Source: Clostridiales bacterium (lineage in GTDB: Bacteria > Bacillota > Clostridia > Christensenellales > SZUA-584). From it: DNA of 64,000 nt. The translations under genes were made by a program, and so were the position numbers. Shown one piece after another: positions 1,809 through 37,171 of the stretch (position 1 is the stretch's first letter; each line of letters begins with the position of its first letter). The stretch lies in contig JAJUJH010000003.1 of NCBI GenBank assembly GCA_029265435.1, positions 935-64,934 on the forward strand. The letters are read 5' to 3'. The notes below the pieces were generated by a model, which was not told where the DNA came from, searched no databases, and saw nothing but the letters and a program-made list of their open reading frames with translations.

Positions 1809-2582
1809 TTAAATAACAAGCCATGTGCTCTCGGGCTTTGCAAGCAATCTAGCATTATTATAAGCCATTTTAAGCGAAAGACATGTATGCCCTATATATC
1901 TATCTTGCACTCGGGATAACGTAAGAGCCAAATCTGGGACTGTGGGATTAAGCAAAGCTAATGGTAATAATAACTGAATTTTTCCTTTATAATATTGAGG
2001 GACCGCAACTTTAAAATTCGTTTGAACACGCTTTTTGGCAATGCATATGGCACCTTCAAATAGCATATTGAGATTCTGAGCATTACGTATAGATGAAGGT
2101 AACCGGTCTTTATTCTTAGCGTCGCTTAAAATGTGTGTAACATTGCAAGAAATCTCTTTTGAGACGTCAAGTATCACATCGTCCACTGACTTAAAATAAA
2201 CAGCCCTCTTCGGTAATATAGGTAAGCGCGTTAAATTTGCAGAAGTGTAAAATCCTTTAAACACCCATGGTTTTGAAGCGGAAGGTGTTGTATTTGGAGA
2301 AAAAAGGCCGTATATTTCTTCATAATTCTTTGTAAATAAACCAGTATTGAAACATATAGTTTTATCATCGATATAAATAATATTATTTTTTTCATTTGTA
2401 TCTGCTTTCTGGTAATCTGCGTACAGCTTCATAAATGTATGGTTGATGTAATTTTTAAGAACGATATTCTTTTCACCCCAATTTTCCGGATCTGCGAAAG
2501 TGGTAAGGTAATTAATAAATCCATCCCAATCCGGAACAACGGCAAAGTTATAGAAGTTTTCTGAAAGTTTGAAATTAGGCAT
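1809..2582 (-). CDS. DUF3825-like protein (function unknown), prophage moron
   Basis: Motifs FAVVPDWD, FNTGLFTKNYEEIYGLF, PWVFKGF, AKKRVQTNFKVAVPQYY, LLLPL and MAYNNARLL...WL match my recollection of the DUF3825 family. Visibly AT-rich compared with the rest of the prophage. Confidence 0.6.
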   Translation of the reverse strand: MPNFKLSENFYNFAVVPDWDGFINYLTTFADPENWGEKNIVLKNYINHTFMKLYADYQKADTNEKNNIIYIDDKTICFNTGLFTKNYEEIYGLFSPNTTPSASKPWVFKGFYTSANLTRLPILPKRAVYFKSVDDVILDVSKEISCNVTHILSDAKNKDRLPSSIRNAQNLNMLFEGAICIAKKRVQTNFKVAVPQYYKGKIQLLLPLALLNPTVPDLALTLSRVQDRYIGHTCLSLKMAYNNARLLAKPESTWLVI

Positions 2583-2647
2583 AATCTTTTATTCCTTTCG
2601 CGTAAAGAAATTTTTATATCTTTTTTAAAAAATATCGTATAAAAAAC

Positions 2648-2676
2648 TTGACATTTTCATATAACTAGAATAAGAT
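2648..2676 (+). promoter_or_regulatory. Near-consensus sigma-A promoter with no downstream CDS
   Basis: TTGACA (2648-2653), 17-nt spacer, TAAGAT (2671-2676). It points away from the DUF3825 gene. Confidence 0.5.
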
Positions 2677-2682
2677 ACTTTA

Positions 2683-2768
2683 TACAGAGCAGCTTTTGCT
2701 GTTCTCTAACTCAAGTTTTTTAGACGTTAATTTTTGGCAGGCACTATTTAGGTGCCTGTTTTATTTCC
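2683..2768 (+). ncRNA. Candidate ~85-nt small RNA (promoter-to-terminator unit)
   Basis: Runs from the predicted start after the -10 to the terminator CAGGCAC/GTGCCTG plus TTTTATTT (2738-2766). Internal hairpin AGAGCAGC/GCTGTTCT. No ATG with an RBS. Confidence 0.3.
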
Positions 2769-2773
2769 TTCAA

Positions 2774-2793
2774 AATCCCAAGCGCTTGGGATT
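2774..2793 (-). terminator. Terminator hairpin of the 2-TM moron gene
   Basis: Perfect 20-nt palindrome AATCCCAAGC|GCTTGGGATT overlaps the stop codon and is followed by TTTT on the minus strand. Confidence 0.6.
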
Positions 2794-3481
2794 ATGCGAT
2801 TTGCTTTTGGATAACAGCTAGGGTTGCACAGACCTCTTTTGCGTAATTAAAAGCTTCTGTATAATAAGCCCGATTTTTATCGACCCCGGGCGGCACAATA
2901 AGGTCTTGCACGATGCTAGGATTTGCTATATCGTTTATGGATATGCGCAGCTGCATTTTGGCGCATAGGTTCATATTCTTTTTCATAGTGGACCCGACAA
3001 TAGCTCCTGTTGCGCCAAAAAGTAATCCGCCGGCGACGGCGTTTGCAGTACTGCTGCTTGTGACCGTTTGCCCGTCCTCAATAAGCTCGTAAGAGACGAG
3101 ATCGGAAAATCCGAACGTACGGTTTTCATTTTGAGATGTAAAGTTTATCAGTTTATTATCAGTATCAACAGCAAAGTGAATCTTATTGAAGTGAATTGTC
3201 TTTGATGATTTGAAGCCTTCTTTCGAAATGAGTAGCTCATATCGAGAAATTTCTTTTTGTTTTTCGGCCATTTCGTCTTCTCGCTTTTTTATCTCTTTGG
3301 CTTTACCGTACATATTTACGAGAGTGATTGGCGTTACGATTGCATCGACAATTATAATCAGCACCGCAAGTAATATAAGCCCTGCGCTAAACGATCGTAC
3401 AGACATTAGTATTAAAATAATCGATACTATTAAAAGCAAAACACCGATGCAAAGCGTTATCCAGAAAGACTTCTTTAACAT
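2792..3481 (-). CDS. Membrane protein: two N-terminal TM helices, coiled segment, C-terminal domain with glycine-zipper stretch
   Basis: 229 aa. Hydrophobic stretches WITLCIGVLLLIVSIILILM and LILLAVLIIIVDAIV, plus GGLLFGATGAIVG. AT-rich. No family recognised. Confidence 0.6.
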   Translation of the reverse strand: MLKKSFWITLCIGVLLLIVSIILILMSVRSFSAGLILLAVLIIIVDAIVTPITLVNMYGKAKEIKKREDEMAEKQKEISRYELLISKEGFKSSKTIHFNKIHFAVDTDNKLINFTSQNENRTFGFSDLVSYELIEDGQTVTSSSTANAVAGGLLFGATGAIVGSTMKKNMNLCAKMQLRISINDIANPSIVQDLIVPPGVDKNRAYYTEAFNYAKEVCATLAVIQKQIA

Positions 3482-3542
3482 GGCAATACCCCTTTTATAT
3501 TATTTTCCGGCAATGCTTTATTTTAAACGCTGCCTAGAATCC

Positions 3543-3986
3543 TTAATCTTTCTCTAAAAAGAACCGTTCAAAATCAGATATGCGCGCTTTGTAATATGCG
3601 AAAACCCACGACAAAAACTCTTCCGTTACGCCTAAATACTCCGCACATTCGAAGCGATTTCTCACTCCGGCCGCTTTGGCTTTGTATAATCGCTCTAACG
3701 GCACAACGAGCTCAATAGCATAGGCGATGGCTCTTGCTTCCTGCCTTGTCATTTCGGATGGATTCATTGTGCGCGCATCGCCCCACGAAGTGATCATGTG
3801 GCCGTATTCTTCGGCCAATGTACAGAGACGGCGCGGGGCGTCCATGCTTGGCCGCAGATAGATTACTTTCTCGTTATTGTAATCACAGTATAAGCCATCC
3901 AGACAATTCGGTAAACGATTATGTTCTTTAATGCGCGCGCCTTCGTCGGTGATGCGCTGCTCAAGAGCTTCATCCGCTGTAAGCAT
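3543..3986 (-). CDS. ImmA/IrrE-like metallopeptidase-domain protein (putative anti-repressor protease) with degenerate zinc motif
   Basis: Sits directly downstream of the XRE repressor, as in ImmR-ImmA pairs. TLAEEYGHM occupies the place of the family HExxH motif. Confidence 0.6.
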   Translation of the reverse strand: MLTADEALEQRITDEGARIKEHNRLPNCLDGLYCDYNNEKVIYLRPSMDAPRRLCTLAEEYGHMITSWGDARTMNPSEMTRQEARAIAYAIELVVPLERLYKAKAAGVRNRFECAEYLGVTEEFLSWVFAYYKARISDFERFFLEKD

Positions 3987-4083
3987 AATTGCGCTCCAAG
4001 ATGTCGAAAGTCTGTTTGTATTTTAGCCCAAGATGTGGTAAATTACAAGTCGCTATATATTGTACAACGCGAGGTATTGTATA

Positions 4084-12388: not shown

Positions 12389-14787
12389 TGATGGCATACG
12401 ACAGACAAATAACCATTTCCGTAGGTAACAGCCGCAAAGCAACAAAATGGCCTGCGTCTACGCTATGGTGGTCGGAGCTGGTGGGACGCCTTCGGACGCC
12501 AATCAGGGGCGCCGAGACATTAGAGCAGTATCTCGCGATGCCCAAGAGCCGACAAGACGAACTCAAGGATGTGGGCGGATTCGTGGCCGGCGCACTCAAC
12601 GGTAACAGGCGCAAGGCCAGCGCTGTGGTGAGCCGCGACATACTGACGCTGGACATGGACAGCATTCCCGCGGGCGGCACAACAGACGTACTGCGCCGTC
12701 TGGAGGGCCTGGGCTGCGGATACTGTGTATATTCCACGCGCAAGCACCACGAGGCGGCTCCGCGGCTGCGTGTGCTGATACCGCTGTACCGGAGCTGCAC
12801 AGCGGACGAATATGAACCGGTTGCGCGCATGATGGCACAGCTGATCGGCATCAATATGTGCGACCCGTCCACGTTCGAAGCGTCTCGCCTGATGTACTGG
12901 CCGTCCTGCTGCGCCGACAGCCAATACGTCTACTACGCTGCAGACAAGCCCATGCTGGACGTGGACGGCGTGCTGGCGCGTTATACCAATTGGCACAACG
13001 TCGCCGAATGGCCGCAGGTCCCAGGCTCGGAGCAGCAGTATGTGAAGCTAGCGCAGAAGCAGGGCGACCCGCTGGAGAAGTCGGGCATCGTCGGCGCGTT
13101 CTGCAAGGTGTATGACATATACACCGCTATGGAAACTTGGCTGCCGGGCATCTACGAGCCGACAGATATCCCCGGCCGGTATACCTACACCGGCGGCAGC
13201 ACGACGGGCGGCGCAATTGTCTACGACGACGGCCGGTTCCTCTACAGCCACCACGCCACGGATCCGTGCAGTGGGCGCTTGGTCAATGCGTTTGACCTTG
13301 TGCGGCTGCATAAATTCGGCGACAAGGACGATGAAGCTGCACCCGGCACGCCCACCAACCGCTTACCGTCGTATACGGCCATGTGTCAGGCGGCTGTAGA
13401 GGACTCCCGCGTCAGCACGTTGCTCAATACGGAGCGGTATGAAAAGGCCACCGAGGCGTTCGGCGACATACCCGAGGCGGACGCGCAGAACGTCGAGGAT
13501 CTGATGGCAATGCTCCAGAAAAGCTACGCCACCGGCCTGCCGGCTAAGACAACTGACAACGTGCTGCTGATACTCGAGTATGACCCGTTGCTCAAAGGCA
13601 AGCTGGCATTCGATGAATTCGCCAACCGAGGGCTGGCGCTGGGCGCGCTGCCGTGGGACGGCCGCAACATCCGCCGGCAGTGGACGGACACCGACGATGC
13701 TGGGCTGAGGCATTATATCGAAAAGGTGTACTGGATCACCGGCAAGGAACGAATCATCGACGCCACACAGCTCTGCGCGTTCAAGCATCGCATCAACGAC
13801 GTGCAGGAATATCTCACGTCGCTAAAATGGGACGGCGTCAAACGGCTGGACACGCTGCTGATCGACTACCTCGGCGCCATGGACAACATATACACCCGCG
13901 CGGTGATCCGTAAGAGCCTCGCCGCGGCCGTAGCGCGCGCCATGGAGCCTGGCACCAAGTACGACTATATGCCTATACTTACGGGCCCGCAGGGCATCGG
14001 CAAGAGCACTCTGCTGCGCCTGCTCGGGCGGCGCTGGTACTCGGACAGCCTGGCTACCTTCGAGGGCAAGGAGGCCGCCGAGATGGTGCAGGGTTATTGG
14101 GTGCTGGAGCTGGGTGAGCTCAACGGCCTGTCACGCTCAGAGATCAACGCTGTCAAGCAGTTCCTGTCGCGCAACGAGGACATATACCGGGAGCCGTACG
14201 GACGGCGTACCAATCTGTTCCCGAGGCGCTGCGTGTTCTTCGGCACCACTAATGACGCTGAGTTCCTGCGTGACCGTACGGGCAATCGCCGGTTCTGGCC
14301 GGTGGATGTGGGGCTTCAGGACCCGACAAAGAGCGTATTTAAGCAGCTGGCCGACGAGGTTGACCAGATATGGGCGGAGGCCTTCATCGTATGGCAGATG
14401 GGCGAGCAGCTGTATTTGACCGGCAAGGCGGAGCAGATATCCATTACGGAGCAGGAGACACACAAGGAAAGCAATGCTAAGGAGGGCGTCATCAGAGAAT
14501 TTCTCGAAAAGCCTATTCCCGTGGATTGGGAAACCAGAGATATCGGCGCCCGGCGGCTGTACTGGTCAAGCGGCTTCTCGCAGCAGAACGTTCAAACGGC
14601 GGAACGTACGCGCACATGCGCGGCGGAAATATGGTGTGAGTGTTTTGGCGGCGATCTTAAATTTATGAAACGGTCCGACAGCGTGGAAATCAACAGCATT
14701 CTGGCCAGCCTTAGCGGCTGGAGGAAGCACAGCAGCACGCAGCGTTTTGGCCCATACGGGACGCAGAAAGGATTCGAAAAGCTGTAA
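12388..14787 (+). CDS. Primase-polymerase / VirE-family (P-loop) replicative helicase-primase
   Basis: ILTGPQGIGKSTLLRLLG Walker A, VFFGTTN and GNRRFWPV (VirE domain), with a primase-like N-terminus. TAATG overlap with the methyltransferase stop. Confidence 0.85.
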   Translation: MMAYDRQITISVGNSRKATKWPASTLWWSELVGRLRTPIRGAETLEQYLAMPKSRQDELKDVGGFVAGALNGNRRKASAVVSRDILTLDMDSIPAGGTTDVLRRLEGLGCGYCVYSTRKHHEAAPRLRVLIPLYRSCTADEYEPVARMMAQLIGINMCDPSTFEASRLMYWPSCCADSQYVYYAADKPMLDVDGVLARYTNWHNVAEWPQVPGSEQQYVKLAQKQGDPLEKSGIVGAFCKVYDIYTAMETWLPGIYEPTDIPGRYTYTGGSTTGGAIVYDDGRFLYSHHATDPCSGRLVNAFDLVRLHKFGDKDDEAAPGTPTNRLPSYTAMCQAAVEDSRVSTLLNTERYEKATEAFGDIPEADAQNVEDLMAMLQKSYATGLPAKTTDNVLLILEYDPLLKGKLAFDEFANRGLALGALPWDGRNIRRQWTDTDDAGLRHYIEKVYWITGKERIIDATQLCAFKHRINDVQEYLTSLKWDGVKRLDTLLIDYLGAMDNIYTRAVIRKSLAAAVARAMEPGTKYDYMPILTGPQGIGKSTLLRLLGRRWYSDSLATFEGKEAAEMVQGYWVLELGELNGLSRSEINAVKQFLSRNEDIYREPYGRRTNLFPRRCVFFGTTNDAEFLRDRTGNRRFWPVDVGLQDPTKSVFKQLADEVDQIWAEAFIVWQMGEQLYLTGKAEQISITEQETHKESNAKEGVIREFLEKPIPVDWETRDIGARRLYWSSGFSQQNVQTAERTRTCAAEIWCECFGGDLKFMKRSDSVEINSILASLSGWRKHSSTQRFGPYGTQKGFEKL

Positions 14788-15047
14788 ACCAACTTTGTAA
14801 ACCTTGTAAACCAACTCGGAAGAAAGTTTACAAGCCATGTAAACCTTGTAAACCAAAAATGACTGAAAGTTTACATGTAAAGTTTACGTGAAAAACCGCA
14901 TGAATATTGGATAAAACCCTATTTGTAAACCTTGTAAACCAACTTTTACATAGGAGCAAAAAATAGAGAAATAGAGAGTATATAATACACCTAACACGCC
15001 TAAACGCGTTATACGCGCACGCGCGCGAGAAAGTTTACAAGTTTACA
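14783..15047. repeat. Iteron field / putative phage replication origin
   Basis: TGTAAACC at 14783, 14796, 14805, 14838, 14847, 14924 and 14933. Inverted GTTTAC(A) at 14826, 14869, 14882, 15033 and 15041. AT-rich block 14950-14990. CG-alternating tract 15013-15028. Non-coding. Confidence 0.6.
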
Positions 15048-15072: not shown

Positions 15073-15357
15073 GTGAGGGAATCGGTAATCGAAAGCTATC
15101 TGAGGGACGAAGTGAAGAAGGCCGGTGGCCGGGCGTACAAGTTTATCTCGCCGGGCAACAACGGTGTGCCGGATAGACTGGTGTGCCTGCCGGGCGGATG
15201 CGTGGCATTCGTGGAGACTAAAGCACCAGGTCGCAAGTCCACGGAGCTGCAGAAAGTGCAGCAGCGGCGTTTGCGGGAGCTGGGATTCCGGGTGTATGCC
15301 GAAGTCGACAGCAGGGAAAAAGTGGACGTCATCATTGGGGAGATGTTGCAAAGATGA
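15073..15357 (+). CDS. VRR-NUC domain nuclease
   Basis: GVPDRL...AFVETKAPG...LQ..Q is a PD..E.K-type VRR-NUC signature. GTG start after GGGAGG. Confidence 0.75.
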   Translation: MRESVIESYLRDEVKKAGGRAYKFISPGNNGVPDRLVCLPGGCVAFVETKAPGRKSTELQKVQQRRLRELGFRVYAEVDSREKVDVIIGEMLQR

Positions 15358-15818
15358 AAATGCTTTTAAAGTGTGATTGGTGCGGTGCACCCATGGAGAG
15401 ATATCCAAGCAAAATCAAAGCCAGAAATTTTTGCAGCCGTGAATGCTTCGGTAAATTCAGCAGCAAAACTACTAACCCAGAAGGCTACGGGTATAGGAGT
15501 TTTGAGAAGAACTCAAAACGGATGGCTGAAATGAACCGTCAACTTAATCCCGGAAGAATGACGCCAGCAACCCGGAGCAAACTGCGCAAAGCCCGTTTTG
15601 GTACTGGCGAAGGAAAATCGTATGTAAAACAATACGGCCGCCACGAACACCGGGTAGTTGCCGAACGGATACTAGGTCGGTCACTTAAGCCGGGTGAAGT
15701 CGTCCATCACATTGACGGTAATAAGAGAAACAACAGCCCGGAGAACTTAATGATTTTTGAGAACCAGGCGCAACATGCTACGTGGCATCAGATGCACAAA
15801 GGAGGTGATGCCGTATGA
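15354..15818 (+). CDS. Free-standing HNH endonuclease
   Basis: VVHHIDGNKRNNSPENL...H HNH core plus an N-terminal CDWCG...C..C zinc module. 4-nt overlaps with both neighbours. Confidence 0.85.
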   Translation: MKMLLKCDWCGAPMERYPSKIKARNFCSRECFGKFSSKTTNPEGYGYRSFEKNSKRMAEMNRQLNPGRMTPATRSKLRKARFGTGEGKSYVKQYGRHEHRVVAERILGRSLKPGEVVHHIDGNKRNNSPENLMIFENQAQHATWHQMHKGGDAV

Positions 15819-17209
15819 TGTTCGAGCCGCATGTTTACCAGCGATATTGCATAGAGCGAATGATATCTGATCCTGCTTTAGGCCTTTTCCTGGACATGGG
15901 CTTGGGTTGACCAGGCAAAACGGTGATCACGCTGACAGCCGTCAACGACTTGCGGTATAACCGGTTCGCTGTGAGCAAGACACTGATTATCGCGCCAAAA
16001 AAAGTTGCTGAGGGCACATGGTCAAAAGAGGCGGCGAAGTGGGATCACCTGAAGCATCTGCGTATATCTCTGGTGCTGGGCAGCGCCGCGAAGCGGATTC
16101 GAGCGGTCAACACGCTGGCCGATGTGTATGTGATTAACCGGGAGAACGTGTGCTGGCTGGTGGAGTATTTCCGCAACGCCTGGCCATTTGACGTGGTGGT
16201 GGTGGATGAGTCTACCAGCTTCAAATCGCATCAGGCGAAGCGATTCAAGGCGCTGACGTGGGTTCGGGGCTTCATGTCGCGGATCTATATTCTCACTGGC
16301 ACGCCGGCGCCGAACGGGTTGATCGACCTGTGGGCGCAGCTGTACCTGCTGGATCAGGGGCAGAGGCTGGGTAAGAATATCACCGGTTTTCGCGAGCGGT
16401 ATTTTAGCCCGGATCAGCGGAACGCGCAGCAGGTCTTCAGCTATCTGCCGAAGCCGGGCGCAGAGGAGGCCATCCAGCAGCTGATCGGCGATATCTGCAT
16501 CAGCATGAAGGCCGAAGATTACATATCGCTACCGGACATCACTGTAAACGACATACCCGTGGTGCTGGACCCCGCGGCGCGCAAGCAGTATGAGCGGCTG
16601 GAAACGGAGATGCTGCTGCAGGTGGACGAGAGCACCATCGACGCGGGCTCGGCGGCTGTGCTGTCCAGCAAGCTGCTTCAGCTGTGCAACGGCGCGGTGT
16701 ACGACGACGAGGGAGGCGTGGTGGAGATCCACAAGTGCAAGATCGAGGCGTTTATGGAATTGATCGAGCAGCTGAACGGGCAGCCGGCGCTGGTGTTTTA
16801 TAACTTCAAACACGATTTGATAAGGCTTGAAACGACGTTGGCCAGGACCGGCCTGCGTGTCCGGAGACTGAACGGCCCGACGGAGGAAGCGGCATGGAAC
16901 AACCGCGAGATTGACATATTGCTGGCGCATCCGGCGTCGTGTGCGTACGGTCTTAACCTGCAGGACGGTGGCAATCACGTGATATGGTTCGGGCTTAACT
17001 GGAGCCTGGAGCTGTACCAGCAGGCCAACAAGCGGCTGCACAGGCAGGGGCAGGCACAGAAGGTTATCGTGCACCACCTGGTGGTGGAGGGCGGGCGTGA
17101 CGAGGACGTAGTGGCAGCGCTGGCGGACAAGAGCGCGACACAGGACAGATTGATCCAATCACTCAAGGCGAGAATTGAGAAAGTGAAAGAGGCATCAACG
17201 CCAGCGTGA
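15815..17209 (+). CDS. SNF2-family helicase, interrupted by an in-frame TGA (15908-15910) within motif I
   Basis: ATG 15815 gives ...LFLDMGLG*PGKTVITLTA... The same frame continues to 17209, with VVVDESTSFKS (motif II) and a helicase C-domain. The track only shows 15923-17209. Confidence 0.75.
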
Positions 17210-17264
17210 TGGGCGGTCTTGTGAGCGTTTTGAGGATTATAAAGCGTGAGGAAGGAGCAAAACG

Positions 17265-17657
17265 ATGACACAAAGTGAATTGATGGAGCTAATGCGCGTA
17301 GCGCTGCGTGAGTGCAAAGAAATAAGTGCCTGGGAAAAAAGCGATGATTGGTACGCCAAGGACGGCGTGAACTGGAAAGAAGTATGCATGCTGAAAGATA
17401 AGACGATCGCCCTATACGACAAGCGCTGGCAAGAGATCCGCAGCGTGATTGACCTTATCGCCGAAGAACTGAATATCATTAACAAAGGCTTTTATTTGTA
17501 TGCACCAAATGCTGATGATAGGCATCCGATATTGGACGCGATACGCGATCTTATATCAAGGAGCGGAGATAAAACAGAATTGAAAAAACGGATTAGCCAG
17601 TTGGAAAGCGAAAATGCAGTGCTACGATCACTTGTCGGAAAAGGAGCAGAGCGATGA
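17265..17657 (+). CDS. Hypothetical protein
   Basis: 130-aa ORF with RBS GGAAGGAG. No recognisable motif. Confidence 0.5.
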   Translation: MTQSELMELMRVALRECKEISAWEKSDDWYAKDGVNWKEVCMLKDKTIALYDKRWQEIRSVIDLIAEELNIINKGFYLYAPNADDRHPILDAIRDLISRSGDKTELKKRISQLESENAVLRSLVGKGAER

Positions 17658-23971: not shown

Positions 23972-24539
23972 GACGGCCAGACAAATGCGATGCGCGCCAA
24001 CACAGTTCCGCGCGGCGGAAACGGAAGGCGCCAAATATATTGAAGGATATTTTGCCGTGTTTGGCGGTGTGTACGAGCTGTGGCCGGGCGCGACTGAGAG
24101 CGTTGATCCGCACGCGTTTGACGACACGCTGAGCGATGACATCCGGGCTCTCACGAATCATGATACGACGTTGGTTCTTGGGCGCACAAAGGCCGGAACG
24201 CTGGAGCTCAGGGTAGATAATCGCGGATTATGGGGACGCGCCAAAGTAAACCAGGCAGACGCGGACGCGATGAATCTTTATGCCAGGATCGAGCGTGGCG
24301 ACGTAGACCAGTGCTCTTTCGGGTTTGACATTCTGGATGAAGAAACAGAATGGCACGAAGACGGAACAGTCCACTGGACGATCAAGAGAGTTAAGCTCTA
24401 CGAGGTGTCGGTTGTAACGTTCCCGGCATACGAGGACACGTCCGTAAACGCCCGCAAAAAGGACTATGAGCAGTTGAGACAGCGCCAGAATAAGGCGTGG
24501 AAAGAAAAAATGAAGGAGAGGATGAAACAGTGGCACTAA
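23955..24539 (+). CDS. Prohead maturation protease (HK97/S78 family)
   Basis: IEGYFAVFG, LTNHD, LGR and EVSVVTFPAY motifs. Lies between portal and capsid. Confidence 0.85.
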   Translation: MKQMDRTARQMRCAPTQFRAAETEGAKYIEGYFAVFGGVYELWPGATESVDPHAFDDTLSDDIRALTNHDTTLVLGRTKAGTLELRVDNRGLWGRAKVNQADADAMNLYARIERGDVDQCSFGFDILDEETEWHEDGTVHWTIKRVKLYEVSVVTFPAYEDTSVNARKKDYEQLRQRQNKAWKEKMKERMKQWH

Positions 24540-26221
24540 GGCAGTTGCTTATTACAAAGCGGATTTCTGCGCTGACCGCCCAGCTCGACGAGCTTAAGGC
24601 GAAAGACGCCGGATTCGAGGAGCGAAGCAAAGCGCTGAAAACACGCGAAGCGGAGTTGGAGGCGGCGGTGAGTGAACTTGCCGATGACGCACCGGAAGAT
24701 GACCGCACAGCGATCGACGAGATGGCGGACGAGTATGAAGCCGACAAAGCTGCACTCGAATCCGAGCAGAGCGAACATGAGGTCAGCAAACAGAGGCTGG
24801 CGGACGAAATTCAGAGGCTGACCGACGAACTGGAGGAACTGAACAAAAAAGCGGCTGAACCGCCAAAGGCGGCAGAAGGAAGGAAAGGTGTAAATGATCA
24901 AATGGAAACAAGAATGAAATTTTTCGGGGGCATTTCAACGGAACAGCGGAGCGCCATTTTTGCGCGAGACGACGTGAGACAGTTCGTTCAGCGTGTGCGC
25001 GAATTTGTCGGCGAAAAACGGTCAGTGACAGGAGCGAACCTGCTGATACCTGATGTGATGCTCGGGTTGCTGCGGGACAACGTGGCAGAGCAATCAAGGC
25101 TGATTAGCAGGGTCAACCTTAAGCCGGTCAAGGGGACGGCACGGCAGAACATTACCGGCACCATACCTGAAGCGGTATGGACGGAGATGATCGGATCTCT
25201 GAATGAACTTGAGATTGGCTTTAATCAGGTTGAGGTGGACGGGTTTAAGGTCGGCGGATATGTGGCTGTATCAAATGCAATTTTGCAGGATAACGACATT
25301 AACCTTGTGGGCGAGGTTATGACCCAGATTGCAAAAGCAATCGCTAAGGCGATTGATAAAGCCATCATTTATGGCACGGGTGTAAAACAGCCTTTGGGTA
25401 TTGTCACGCGTCTTGCACAGACCAGCGCTCCGTCTGATTATCCGGCCAACGCTCCGGCATGGGTGGATCTGCATACTACAAACATCAGCAAGGTTAACAC
25501 CACGGGTGCTGCTCTTATCGGGAGCATTGTGTCGGCATTCGGCGCGTGCAAAAATGATTTCTCGGACGGCCGGAAATTTTTCGCGATGAACAGCGCGACC
25601 TACTCATATCTCGTGACGACACTGCTGAACTTTAATGCTGCAGGCGCCATCGTAACGGGTATGAACGCGCAAATGCCTATCCTCGGCGGCGATATCGTTA
25701 TTCTGGACTTTATGCCTGATTACGATATTGTCGGCGGTTACGGCGATTTGTATCTGCTTGCGGAACGCGAGGGCGTCACACTCGAATCCTCCGAGCATGT
25801 ACTGTTTGTGCAAGACGGTACAGTGTTTAAGGGTGTAGCGCGGTATGACGGGCTGCCGGTTATCGCAAAAGGATTTTTCCTTATCAACATCAAGAATACC
25901 GATGCGGCGACTTCGGCGACGTTTGCGCCTGACTATGCGAACACCGAGCTTGGCGTCCTCGGCGTGACGGCGGCGGCCGGCTCGGCATCAGGTGATACCG
26001 TATTGACGGTAACGGGCAAAGAGGCGTCCGGTACAACGCTTGCATATAAGATCGGCGATTACACGCTGAAATGTGGCCAGACGGTTACGAACTATGCCAC
26101 GCTCGTGTCTGGTACAACGCAGATTACGGCAGCGGCCGGAAAGATGATTACCGTTGTTGAGCTCAACAGCGACGGCAGAGTTATCAAGATCGGTAAAGCG
26201 GCGTCTATACCAAAAGCGTGA
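24497..26221 (+). CDS. Major capsid protein (HK97 fold) with long coiled-coil N-terminal domain and C-terminal Ig-like extension
   Basis: Central HK97-type core. E/A/K-rich first ~130 aa. The alternative start GTG 24530 has better spacing from AAGGAGAGG. Confidence 0.85.
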   Translation: MERKNEGEDETVALRQLLITKRISALTAQLDELKAKDAGFEERSKALKTREAELEAAVSELADDAPEDDRTAIDEMADEYEADKAALESEQSEHEVSKQRLADEIQRLTDELEELNKKAAEPPKAAEGRKGVNDQMETRMKFFGGISTEQRSAIFARDDVRQFVQRVREFVGEKRSVTGANLLIPDVMLGLLRDNVAEQSRLISRVNLKPVKGTARQNITGTIPEAVWTEMIGSLNELEIGFNQVEVDGFKVGGYVAVSNAILQDNDINLVGEVMTQIAKAIAKAIDKAIIYGTGVKQPLGIVTRLAQTSAPSDYPANAPAWVDLHTTNISKVNTTGAALIGSIVSAFGACKNDFSDGRKFFAMNSATYSYLVTTLLNFNAAGAIVTGMNAQMPILGGDIVILDFMPDYDIVGGYGDLYLLAEREGVTLESSEHVLFVQDGTVFKGVARYDGLPVIAKGFFLINIKNTDAATSATFAPDYANTELGVLGVTAAAGSASGDTVLTVTGKEASGTTLAYKIGDYTLKCGQTVTNYATLVSGTTQITAAAGKMITVVELNSDGRVIKIGKAASIPKA

Positions 26222-37094: not shown

Positions 37095-37141
37095 TGGTCT
37101 GGGTGAGAAGATTCGAACTTCCGGCCTCTTGAACCCCATTC
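37095..37141. repeat. attR: 47-bp core repeat forming the 3' part of the functional tRNA-Pro
   Basis: Direct repeat of 453-499. Confidence 0.9.
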
Positions 37142-37171
37142 AAGCGCGCTACCAAGCTGCGCCACACCCAG
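37095..37171 (-). tRNA. tRNA-Pro (anticodon GGG), CCA encoded
   Basis: Hand-folded cloverleaf. Acceptor CTGGGTG/CACCCAG, D-arm GCGC/GCGC, anticodon arm CTTGA-AUGGGGU-TCAAG with G37, T-arm GGAAG-TTCGAAT-CTTCT, discriminator A plus CCA. Confidence 0.9.

Follow-up and report, generated by a model that had tools for sequence, protein, structure and literature searches.

Programmed translational bypassing in phages is so far represented by a single case, T4 gene 60, along with homologues of it that were found recently. Bonocora et al. reportedly described in 2011 the bypass of T4 gene 60 together with the MobA homing-endonuclease cassette. Here we analyse an SNF2 helicase gene in a prophage-like block of a Clostridiales bacterium (GenBank assembly GCA_029265435.1, contig JAJUJH010000003.1, forward strand positions 935 to 64,934; this stretch of 64,000 nucleotides (nt) is called the window, and its own numbering is used throughout). 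A 9-nt insert opening with an in-frame TGA interrupts the P-loop codons of this gene, and inserts of the same class recur at the same codons in related genes. We show that an HNH endonuclease gene and the insert are co-inherited as a mobile cassette. We further propose that the 9-nt gap is probably part of a homing-endonuclease cassette and is bypassed by peptidyl-tRNA hopping, which would make it a second phage system, independent of gene 60.

The closest described systems are covered by the 2022 survey of Manning and Atkins (bioRxiv 10.1101/2022.08.31.505936). In gene 60, the ribosome takes off at an invariant Gly46 or at Asp45 with a stop or a hungry sense codon in the A site, and the landing codon is identical to the take-off codon or wobble-matched with it. 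The gene 60 insert blocks nicking by MobA, and in some lineages the endonuclease has been lost or replaced while the bypass stays. According to the same survey, no similar bypassing has been reported in other phages, hopping was seen at a low level in early Escherichia coli constructs, and the mitochondrial 'byp' elements of Magnusiomyces capitatus are bypassed inserts in essential genes. Our own literature search found no description of bypassing in SNF2 or other helicase genes, or of short-gap bypass cassettes.

Compared with gene 60 and MobA, the SNF2 cassette has the same layout, in which an HNH-type endonuclease gene is the close 5' neighbour of an insert placed in strongly conserved coding sequence. 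The invariant Gly at take-off, the stop or rarely sense codon behind it and the matched or wobble-matched landing codon all have counterparts at the SNF2 inserts; endonuclease and insert likewise move together, and the endonuclease is sometimes lost (locus L054) or replaced (locus L051). This likeness to MobA is one of layout, the HNH protein here being known by its Pfam HNH_3 assignment only, and the SNF2 hop is proposed from comparison. The SNF2 gaps measure 4–17 nt against 50 nt in gene 60, and the target is a helicase P-loop instead of a topoisomerase. Unlike in T4, the endonuclease gene lies between genes and does not split the open reading frame (ORF). The SNF2 class also differs in having three alternative take-off positions, at least 38 variants and Bacillota phages or prophages as hosts, and in showing no conserved take-off stem-loop, internal Shine-Dalgarno sequence or evident nascent-peptide signal. 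Because the gaps are short and neither a hairpin nor other gene 60 signals are shared, the SNF2 insert is not a gene 60 homologue. We suggest that it nevertheless follows the cassette logic of MobA and gene 60, and that what would be new is the target gene, the shorter gap, the lack of gene 60 signals and the wide spread among Bacillota phages.

The E. coli hopping constructs have the geometry of the 6-nt SNF2 types (GGT TGA GGC), to which the window comes close with 12 nt for one Gly, and in both cases the peptidyl-tRNA would re-pair on a nearby cognate codon irrespective of frame. Those constructs were synthetic or mutant and of low efficiency, whereas the SNF2 layout occurs in nature, is conserved and under selection, and goes with a mobile element. 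Like the SNF2 inserts, 'byp' elements are short, have matched or near-matched take-off and landing codons with a non-decodable codon in the A site, and behave as mobile DNA; they are, however, 27–55 nt long and GC-cluster-like, come without a homing endonuclease and occupy many sites per genome, while the SNF2 inserts sit at one motif. Inteins and group I introns that carry homing endonucleases in phage ATPase P-loops follow the same strategy, in that the endonuclease targets the most conserved ATPase codons, the element's own copy is interrupted and the protein is restored. Restoration there is by protein or RNA splicing and takes hundreds of bases, whereas inserts of 4–17 nt can neither encode an intein nor fold into an intron.

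An interrupted P-loop and its relatives

The SNF2 gene begins at ATG 15815 on the + strand, as do all features of this locus given below. Its first coding segment (15815–15907; 31 codons, MMFEPHVYQRYCIERMISDPALGLFLDMGLG) ends with GAC ATG GGC TTG GGT, of which the last codon (15905–15907), the second Gly of GLG, is the proposed take-off codon. The insert TGA-CCA-GGC (15908–15916) follows directly and would remain untranslated; it reads TGA (15908–15910), the A-site codon at take-off, then CCA (15911–15913) and GGC (15914–15916), the proposed landing codon. The second coding segment (15917–17209) restarts at AAA ACG (15917–15922; K T) and spans the helicase motifs, and Pfam places both the SNF2-related and the Helicase_C domain on the part 3' of the insert. 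The frame after the TGA is open as far as the stop at 17207–17209, with GTG 15923 as the earliest start codon downstream of the in-frame TGA.

Direct reading of the sequence matches this layout as given in an earlier note on the same DNA, which had described an in-frame TGA within SNF2 P-loop codons flanked by Gly codons. Its statement that removing TGA-CCA-GGC restores DMGLGKTVITL also proved exact: deletion of 15908–15916 gives a protein of 461 amino acids (aa) with this motif, the same as in the closest full-length relatives (P0002–P0010; 459–461 aa, at most 85% identical), where DMGLGKT is uninterrupted.

Relatives were gathered in four sets of loci: 80 from viral contigs, found with the SNF2 protein; 80 found with an alignment of the upstream HNH protein; 80 from species-representative genomes; and three deposited phage genomes (Carmen17, Pd_22F and NatCom_29429). 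We defined the take-off codon as the last codon in common with the intact protein and the landing codon as the one immediately before the intact protein sequence resumes. The first interrupted relatives, L001 and L002, came from the DNA behind two 431-aa proteins whose called start is the P-loop. Near-identity DNA searches of phage and E. coli collections with 15700–17300 gave no match, and the closest genome match to the window is a Bacillota metagenome-assembled genome (MAG), 82% identical. Scanning metagenomes with the pattern GGTTGACCN{0,1}GGCAARAC returned at least 120 chance matches, none in an SNF2 gene among the matches listed; the same pattern had 71 matches in viral contigs, only one of which (L395) was relevant.

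Among 242 helicase loci, 79 are interrupted, 156 are intact and 7 are cut off by a contig end. Every interruption lies within the M-G-L-G-K codons, and the 79 loci carry 38 distinct insert types, placed after the first Gly (15 types), after Leu (one) or after the second Gly (22, including the window). The hop distances are 4, 5, 6, 7, 8, 9, 10, 11, 15 and 17 nt, equal to 0 modulo 3 in nine types, to 1 in 13 and to 2 in 16. If the landing codon is not re-read, (D)MGLGK[TS] is restored exactly in every type.

Length and frame thus vary, while the layout GGY-stop-(0–6 nt)-GGY is conserved. Take-off is from GGT in 30 types, GGC in seven and CTT in one, and never from GGA or GGG, which occupy the two Gly positions in 59% and 47% of 134 distinct intact genes. 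Landing codons are GGC (19 types), GGT (6), GGA (3), AGC (6), AGT (2), CTT (1) and GAC (1); GGT to GGC is the predominant combination (18 types), and the single Leu-site type (L133 and L139) uses CTT for both take-off and landing. A stop comes right after the take-off codon in 34 of 38 types (TGA 21, TAG 10, TAA 3; binomial p about 4e-41 against an expectation of 3/64), and landing and take-off codons agree in their first two bases in 29 of 38 (p about 1e-27 against 1/16); because the insert types are phylogenetically related, these binomial p-values overstate independence. The bypass geometry of take-off codon, adjacent stop and matching landing codon, proposed in the earlier note from the window, is therefore supported by comparison with relatives, a check that the note itself had suggested, as a layout recurring in 38 types of apparently constrained genes.

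Individual types illustrate this variation. Among the variants nearest to that of the window, which also include L395 (described below), L002 has GGT TGA CC GGC AAA (tgacc-GGC, 8 nt), L001 has GGT TGA CGA GC AAG (tgacg-AGC, 8 nt) and L141 carries a 9-nt insert, tagccc-GGC, at another site. Frames differ even between close relatives, with 9 nt in the window, 8 nt in L002 and 10 nt in L110 and L136. In L083 and L113 (viral contigs; 15 and 17 nt), GGC is followed by CCA and more sense codons before a stop, and landing is on GGT/GGA; these two deviate from the stop-after-take-off rule and may use a different pause signal. A 4-nt variant shared by L118, L119, L122 and L123 reads GGT T GGC AAA, with TGG (Trp) in the A site.

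This recurrence bears on whether the insert is real. A recent mutation private to this genome, or an artefact of assembly or sequencing, would agree with the exact tgacca variant being confined to the window, where the protein cluster consists of one member from one contig. The insert class, however, is found in dozens of independent metagenomes, in MAGs and in the three deposited phage genomes. In addition, L395 (IMGVR_UViG_3300031760_000234, reverse strand, around 2363) has the near-identical 9-nt insert tgaccg-GGC at the same P-loop codon (GGT TGA CCG GGC AAG); its helicase is 27% identical to the SNF2 protein of the window, and its upstream ORF is DNA-binding-like and not HNH. Recurrence across so many assemblies excludes the assembly artefact that the earlier note had listed, and we give almost no credence to the wider explanation.

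The frame relations bear on a second explanation, in which in-frame inserts are read through and the others are passed by +1 or −1 frameshifting, adding one to five residues to the P-loop (GLG-W-P-G-KT in the window). In favour of this, the window insert does not shift the frame, UGA terminates weakly when C comes next and is leaky in some Bacillota, and in some types TTG GGT TGA permits a −1 slip onto GGG. But three mechanisms would then have to serve one conserved layout in which all three frames occur, even among close relatives, and the Gly-like codon before K would be left unexplained. Re-pairing is also poor at most slip sites (GGU to GUU, for example), and extra residues in motif I of an SF2 ATPase would be expected to be disruptive. 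We therefore consider this explanation unlikely. Genome-wide reassignment of TGA, judged unlikely in the earlier note, is rejected too, given that TGA is the commonest stop in the prophage and ends 17 of its 31 ORFs.

Several single mechanisms were rejected for the class as a whole. Stop-codon readthrough or selenocysteine insertion fits the window alone, 29 of 38 types being out of frame and all three stops being used; selenocysteine was judged by stop usage and frame, and no search was made for a SECIS element. Programmed frameshifting of a fixed direction, +1 or −1, does not agree with the presence of all three frame relations at the same site. An intein or group I intron was dismissed on size (9 nt, against at least about 130 codons or 200 nt for a self-splicing element), and phase-variable deletion on size as well, together with the occurrence of three different stop codons and of varying frames.

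Constraint on the interrupted genes

Interrupted genes are otherwise intact. The ORF after the landing codon measures 414–445 codons in 76 of the 77 loci that reach a stop, compared with 415–448 codons in intact genes; the sole locus with a second lesion is L122, where codon 303 is a premature stop. All interrupted genes keep the N-terminal Q-motif (P-H-x-Y-Q), which precedes the insert, as well as the K-T that comes directly after landing.

In 35 phylogenetically disjoint pairs of interrupted genes, the ratio of non-synonymous to synonymous substitution rates (dN/dS) is 0.21 over the roughly 30 upstream codons and 0.22 over the rest of the gene, against 0.14 and 0.15 for the same two segments in intact genes; these ratios are approximate because dS is near saturation in the pairs compared. 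Close pairs sharing one insert type (L299/L018, L046/L044, L133/L139, L135/L131, L125/L120, L103/L105 and L119/L118) have a ratio of non-synonymous to synonymous differences per site (pN/pS) of 0.04–0.10. Because both members of a pair carry the same insert, this divergence came after the insert was acquired. In the upstream segment of L299/L018 we counted five synonymous and no non-synonymous differences, and pN/pS is 0.07–0.10 between members of the TGG type (L118, L119, L122 and L123). Interrupted helicase genes thus appear, from these patterns of substitution, to retain function. Intact ORFs, constrained dN/dS and pN/pS and the restriction of a second lesion to L122 speak against a pseudogene. 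The earlier alternative of an inactivating insertion seen only in a decayed copy is likewise refuted by the recurrence of the insert, the intact ORFs and purifying selection.

We also considered a split gene, in which a 31-aa peptide from the N-terminal part assembles non-covalently with a C-terminal protein whose translation restarts at an overlapping TTGA (TTG start). A TTG does lie at or near the stop in the resume frame in L001, L002 and eight other types, and gene callers use a TTG start (P0062, P0065). In 18 of 38 types, however, the open resume frame holds no start codon able to include GKT; the window is among these 18, its TTG being out of frame. Walker A would moreover be divided between two chains three residues before the lysine, which seems implausible. 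The earlier note had raised re-initiation at GTG 15923, giving a protein that lacks the P-loop; re-initiation that keeps the GKT codons is impossible in these types, and a split gene in general is very improbable.

Linkage to an HNH endonuclease gene

The gene immediately 5' of SNF2, overlooked by the earlier note, is an HNH gene (15354–15818) encoding a protein of 154 aa with an N-terminal Cys4 motif and a match to HNH_3 (PF13392, E=1.5e-12). Its stop overlaps the SNF2 ATG (ATGA), and the catalytic and Cys residues are invariant across the HNH protein alignment A1. The gene is free-standing, located between SNF2 and a VRR-NUC-like nuclease gene (15073–15357), and encodes a putative homing endonuclease. 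The VRR-NUC-like gene forms the left border of the HNH cassette and was recognised by a GxPD...ExK motif in its translation, a Pfam search of it at 1e-5 giving no match; it is the usual 5' neighbour of SNF2 and directly abuts it in 117 of 129 intact relatives.

The HNH gene and the insert are strongly associated. Within the two SNF2-anchored samples, HNH is upstream in 6 of 13 interrupted loci and in none of 129 intact loci (Fisher p=1.7e-7). When loci were anchored on HNH instead, an SNF2 gene lay directly downstream in 79 of 80, and 61 of these 79 SNF2 genes are interrupted; most of the 18 intact ones have another P-loop motif, for example xCGLGK or LGMGK. One of the six HNH-linked interrupted loci is L051, in which the slot 5' of the interrupted SNF2 gene (GGT t AGC) is occupied by a member of another HNH family (1165–1728; 187 aa, I-HmuI/NUMOD-like).

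Five genome pairs show a tract of 99–100% identity amid flanks that are 85–95% identical, and this tract takes in the HNH gene, the initial ~90 nt of SNF2 and also the insert (about −600 to 0/+100). Across the N-terminal codons of six such pairs, a hand calculation gives one synonymous difference observed where about 35 would be expected by extrapolation from the rest of the gene. Between the near-identical loci L084 and L054, which both carry the insert, the difference is that the HNH gene is missing from L054. The identity tracts and the loss of HNH in L054 therefore show that endonuclease, SNF2 5' end and insert move as a unit, from which the endonuclease can later be lost. The HNH gene upstream is the likely reason why the insert exists, and we are close to certain that the insert is a selected, endonuclease-linked feature.

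Endonuclease linkage does not in itself call for recoding. The insert could be an immunity scar, either protecting the DNA from HNH or left by cut and repair, with loss of the helicase, or of its P-loop when translation begins at GTG 15923, being tolerated. HNH linkage would account for the insert in this way without recoding; some inserts are simple duplications, L122 has its extra premature stop, and truncated helicases are already annotated in Carmen17, Pd_22F and NatCom_29429. Against this stand the full-length downstream ORFs (76/77) and the pN/pS of 0.04–0.10 since insert acquisition. The 30 upstream codons and the K-T after landing are conserved in every type, which would be pointless if they were not joined, and a knock-out needs neither a stop right after Gly (34/38 types) nor a Gly-like landing codon. 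An immunity scar with a lost helicase is accordingly an improbable account of the family.

A proposed ribosome hop and its setting

We hypothesize, from this comparative evidence, that hopping is the likely way in which the helicase protein is restored. The HNH gene was observed to travel together with some 90 nt from the start of SNF2 and with the short insert in the DMGLGKT codons. By analogy with T4 MobA and gene 60, the insert would disrupt conserved P-loop DNA that the HNH protein probably recognises in insert-free phages; because the recognised DNA is broken up, the genome carrying the insert would not be cut. During translation, a peptidyl-tRNA-Gly with anticodon GCC would sit on GGU with a slow UGA in the A site and unpair, the mRNA would slide by 9 nt, and the tRNA would re-pair on GGC. 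Decoding would restart at AAA ACG and yield ...DMGLGKTVITL... as a single chain, the product reading FLDMGLGK/TVITLTAVNDLR across the junction.

In the window, the take-off codon GGT and the landing codon GGC are both read by tRNA-Gly GCC. Leaving the G:U wobble on GGU for a full Watson-Crick pair on GGC would favour the hop, and the predominance of GGT to GGC among the insert types suggests such wobble release and Watson-Crick capture. Hopping is favoured here because it alone would explain the independence of frame, the placement of the stop, take-off from GGY or matched CTT, landing on a cognate or near-cognate codon and selection on both flanks.

A local hairpin, GCUUGG-GUUGA-CCAGGC (15900–15916), is part of the minimum free energy structure of 15875–15945. 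In this hairpin, which has a 6-bp stem, the take-off codon spans the top of the stem and part of the loop, the loop also contains the stop, and the landing codon belongs to the 3' arm. The hairpin is specific to the window variant, most other insert types having no equivalent. Folding of the 71 nt at 15875–15945 against shuffles showed no extra stability (z=−0.65) and therefore makes no case for a conserved RNA structure.

Several observations weigh against a hop. Short hops over stop codons, where they are known from E. coli, have low efficiency, and the stimulators of gene 60 (take-off stem-loop, nascent-peptide signal, internal Shine-Dalgarno sequence) are not evident across the family. A sense codon occupies the A site in 4 of 38 types (CCA twice, CTA and TGG). 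Nine types land on AGY or GAC, where the Gly anticodon finds a partner at only two of three positions; these are hops of 4–5 nt in which the landing codon overlaps the stop, or two longer variants. The exact 9-nt variant of the window (tgacca) was found nowhere else, and for the window taken by itself the rival explanations are improbable rather than formally excluded. Finally, several inserts are perfect TTAGG tandem duplications (L044, L115), and the codon match could therefore be a by-product of insert origin.

Taking both sides together, we think it somewhat more probable than otherwise that Bacillota phages hold a large, unrecognised family of natural ribosome hops of 4–17 nt, spread by HNH cassettes and targeted to the helicase P-loop. 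If this is true, bypassing would be a common, evolvable route to endonuclease self-immunity and no T4 curiosity, and a take-off codon read by wobble, with a stop next to it and a cognate landing codon close by, would be nearly all that it needs. The 38 or more natural variants, differing in gap length, stop and landing codon, would form a ready mutational series for peptidyl-tRNA unpairing and re-pairing. The family would also support the view that an invariant coding motif is open to invasion by a homing endonuclease that is paired with a recoding signal in place of an intron or intein. In current annotation such helicases appear as truncated or split genes, and they would count as pseudogenes or as markers of a defective prophage.

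Three plaque-isolated or complete phage genomes bear inserts: Bacillus phage Carmen17 (MG784342; L364) with GGT tgacgta GGC, 10 nt; Paenibacillus phage Pd_22F (MZ092003; L363) with GGT ta GGT; and Ruminococcus phage NatCom_29429 (PV036441; L365) with GGT t GAC. In the deposited annotations the helicase either starts downstream of the P-loop or is divided into ORFs of 30 and 410 aa, and the 5' segment and the insert are unannotated in these records. Because the layout occurs in culturable phages (Carmen17, Pd_22F), the system is directly testable.

The prophage around the SNF2 gene looks complete, with genes for a DUF2800 nuclease, an Enc34-type single-stranded DNA-binding protein, a family A polymerase, a VapE-like primase/helicase, terminase, portal and capsid. 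Between the VapE-like and VRR-NUC-like genes, 14786–14944 holds three direct copies of a unit of about 31 nt with TTGTAAACCTTGTAAACCAAC, spaced by 42 and 86 nt, perhaps serving the replication module as iterons or operator sites. A search for att direct repeats in 3000–38500 yielded nothing convincing. A tRNA-Pro(GGG) gene (37095–37171, − strand) lies just past the last phage-like ORFs of the + strand and is likely the integration site of the prophage. To the left of the prophage-like block, where genes are on the − strand, G+C falls to 0.39 in 2001–4000, compared with 0.45–0.59 elsewhere. The major capsid ORF (24497–26221) has a C-terminal match to the C-terminal domain of the S-layer protein SbsC (PF18316, E=2e-6), which may represent an unusual decoration-like fusion.

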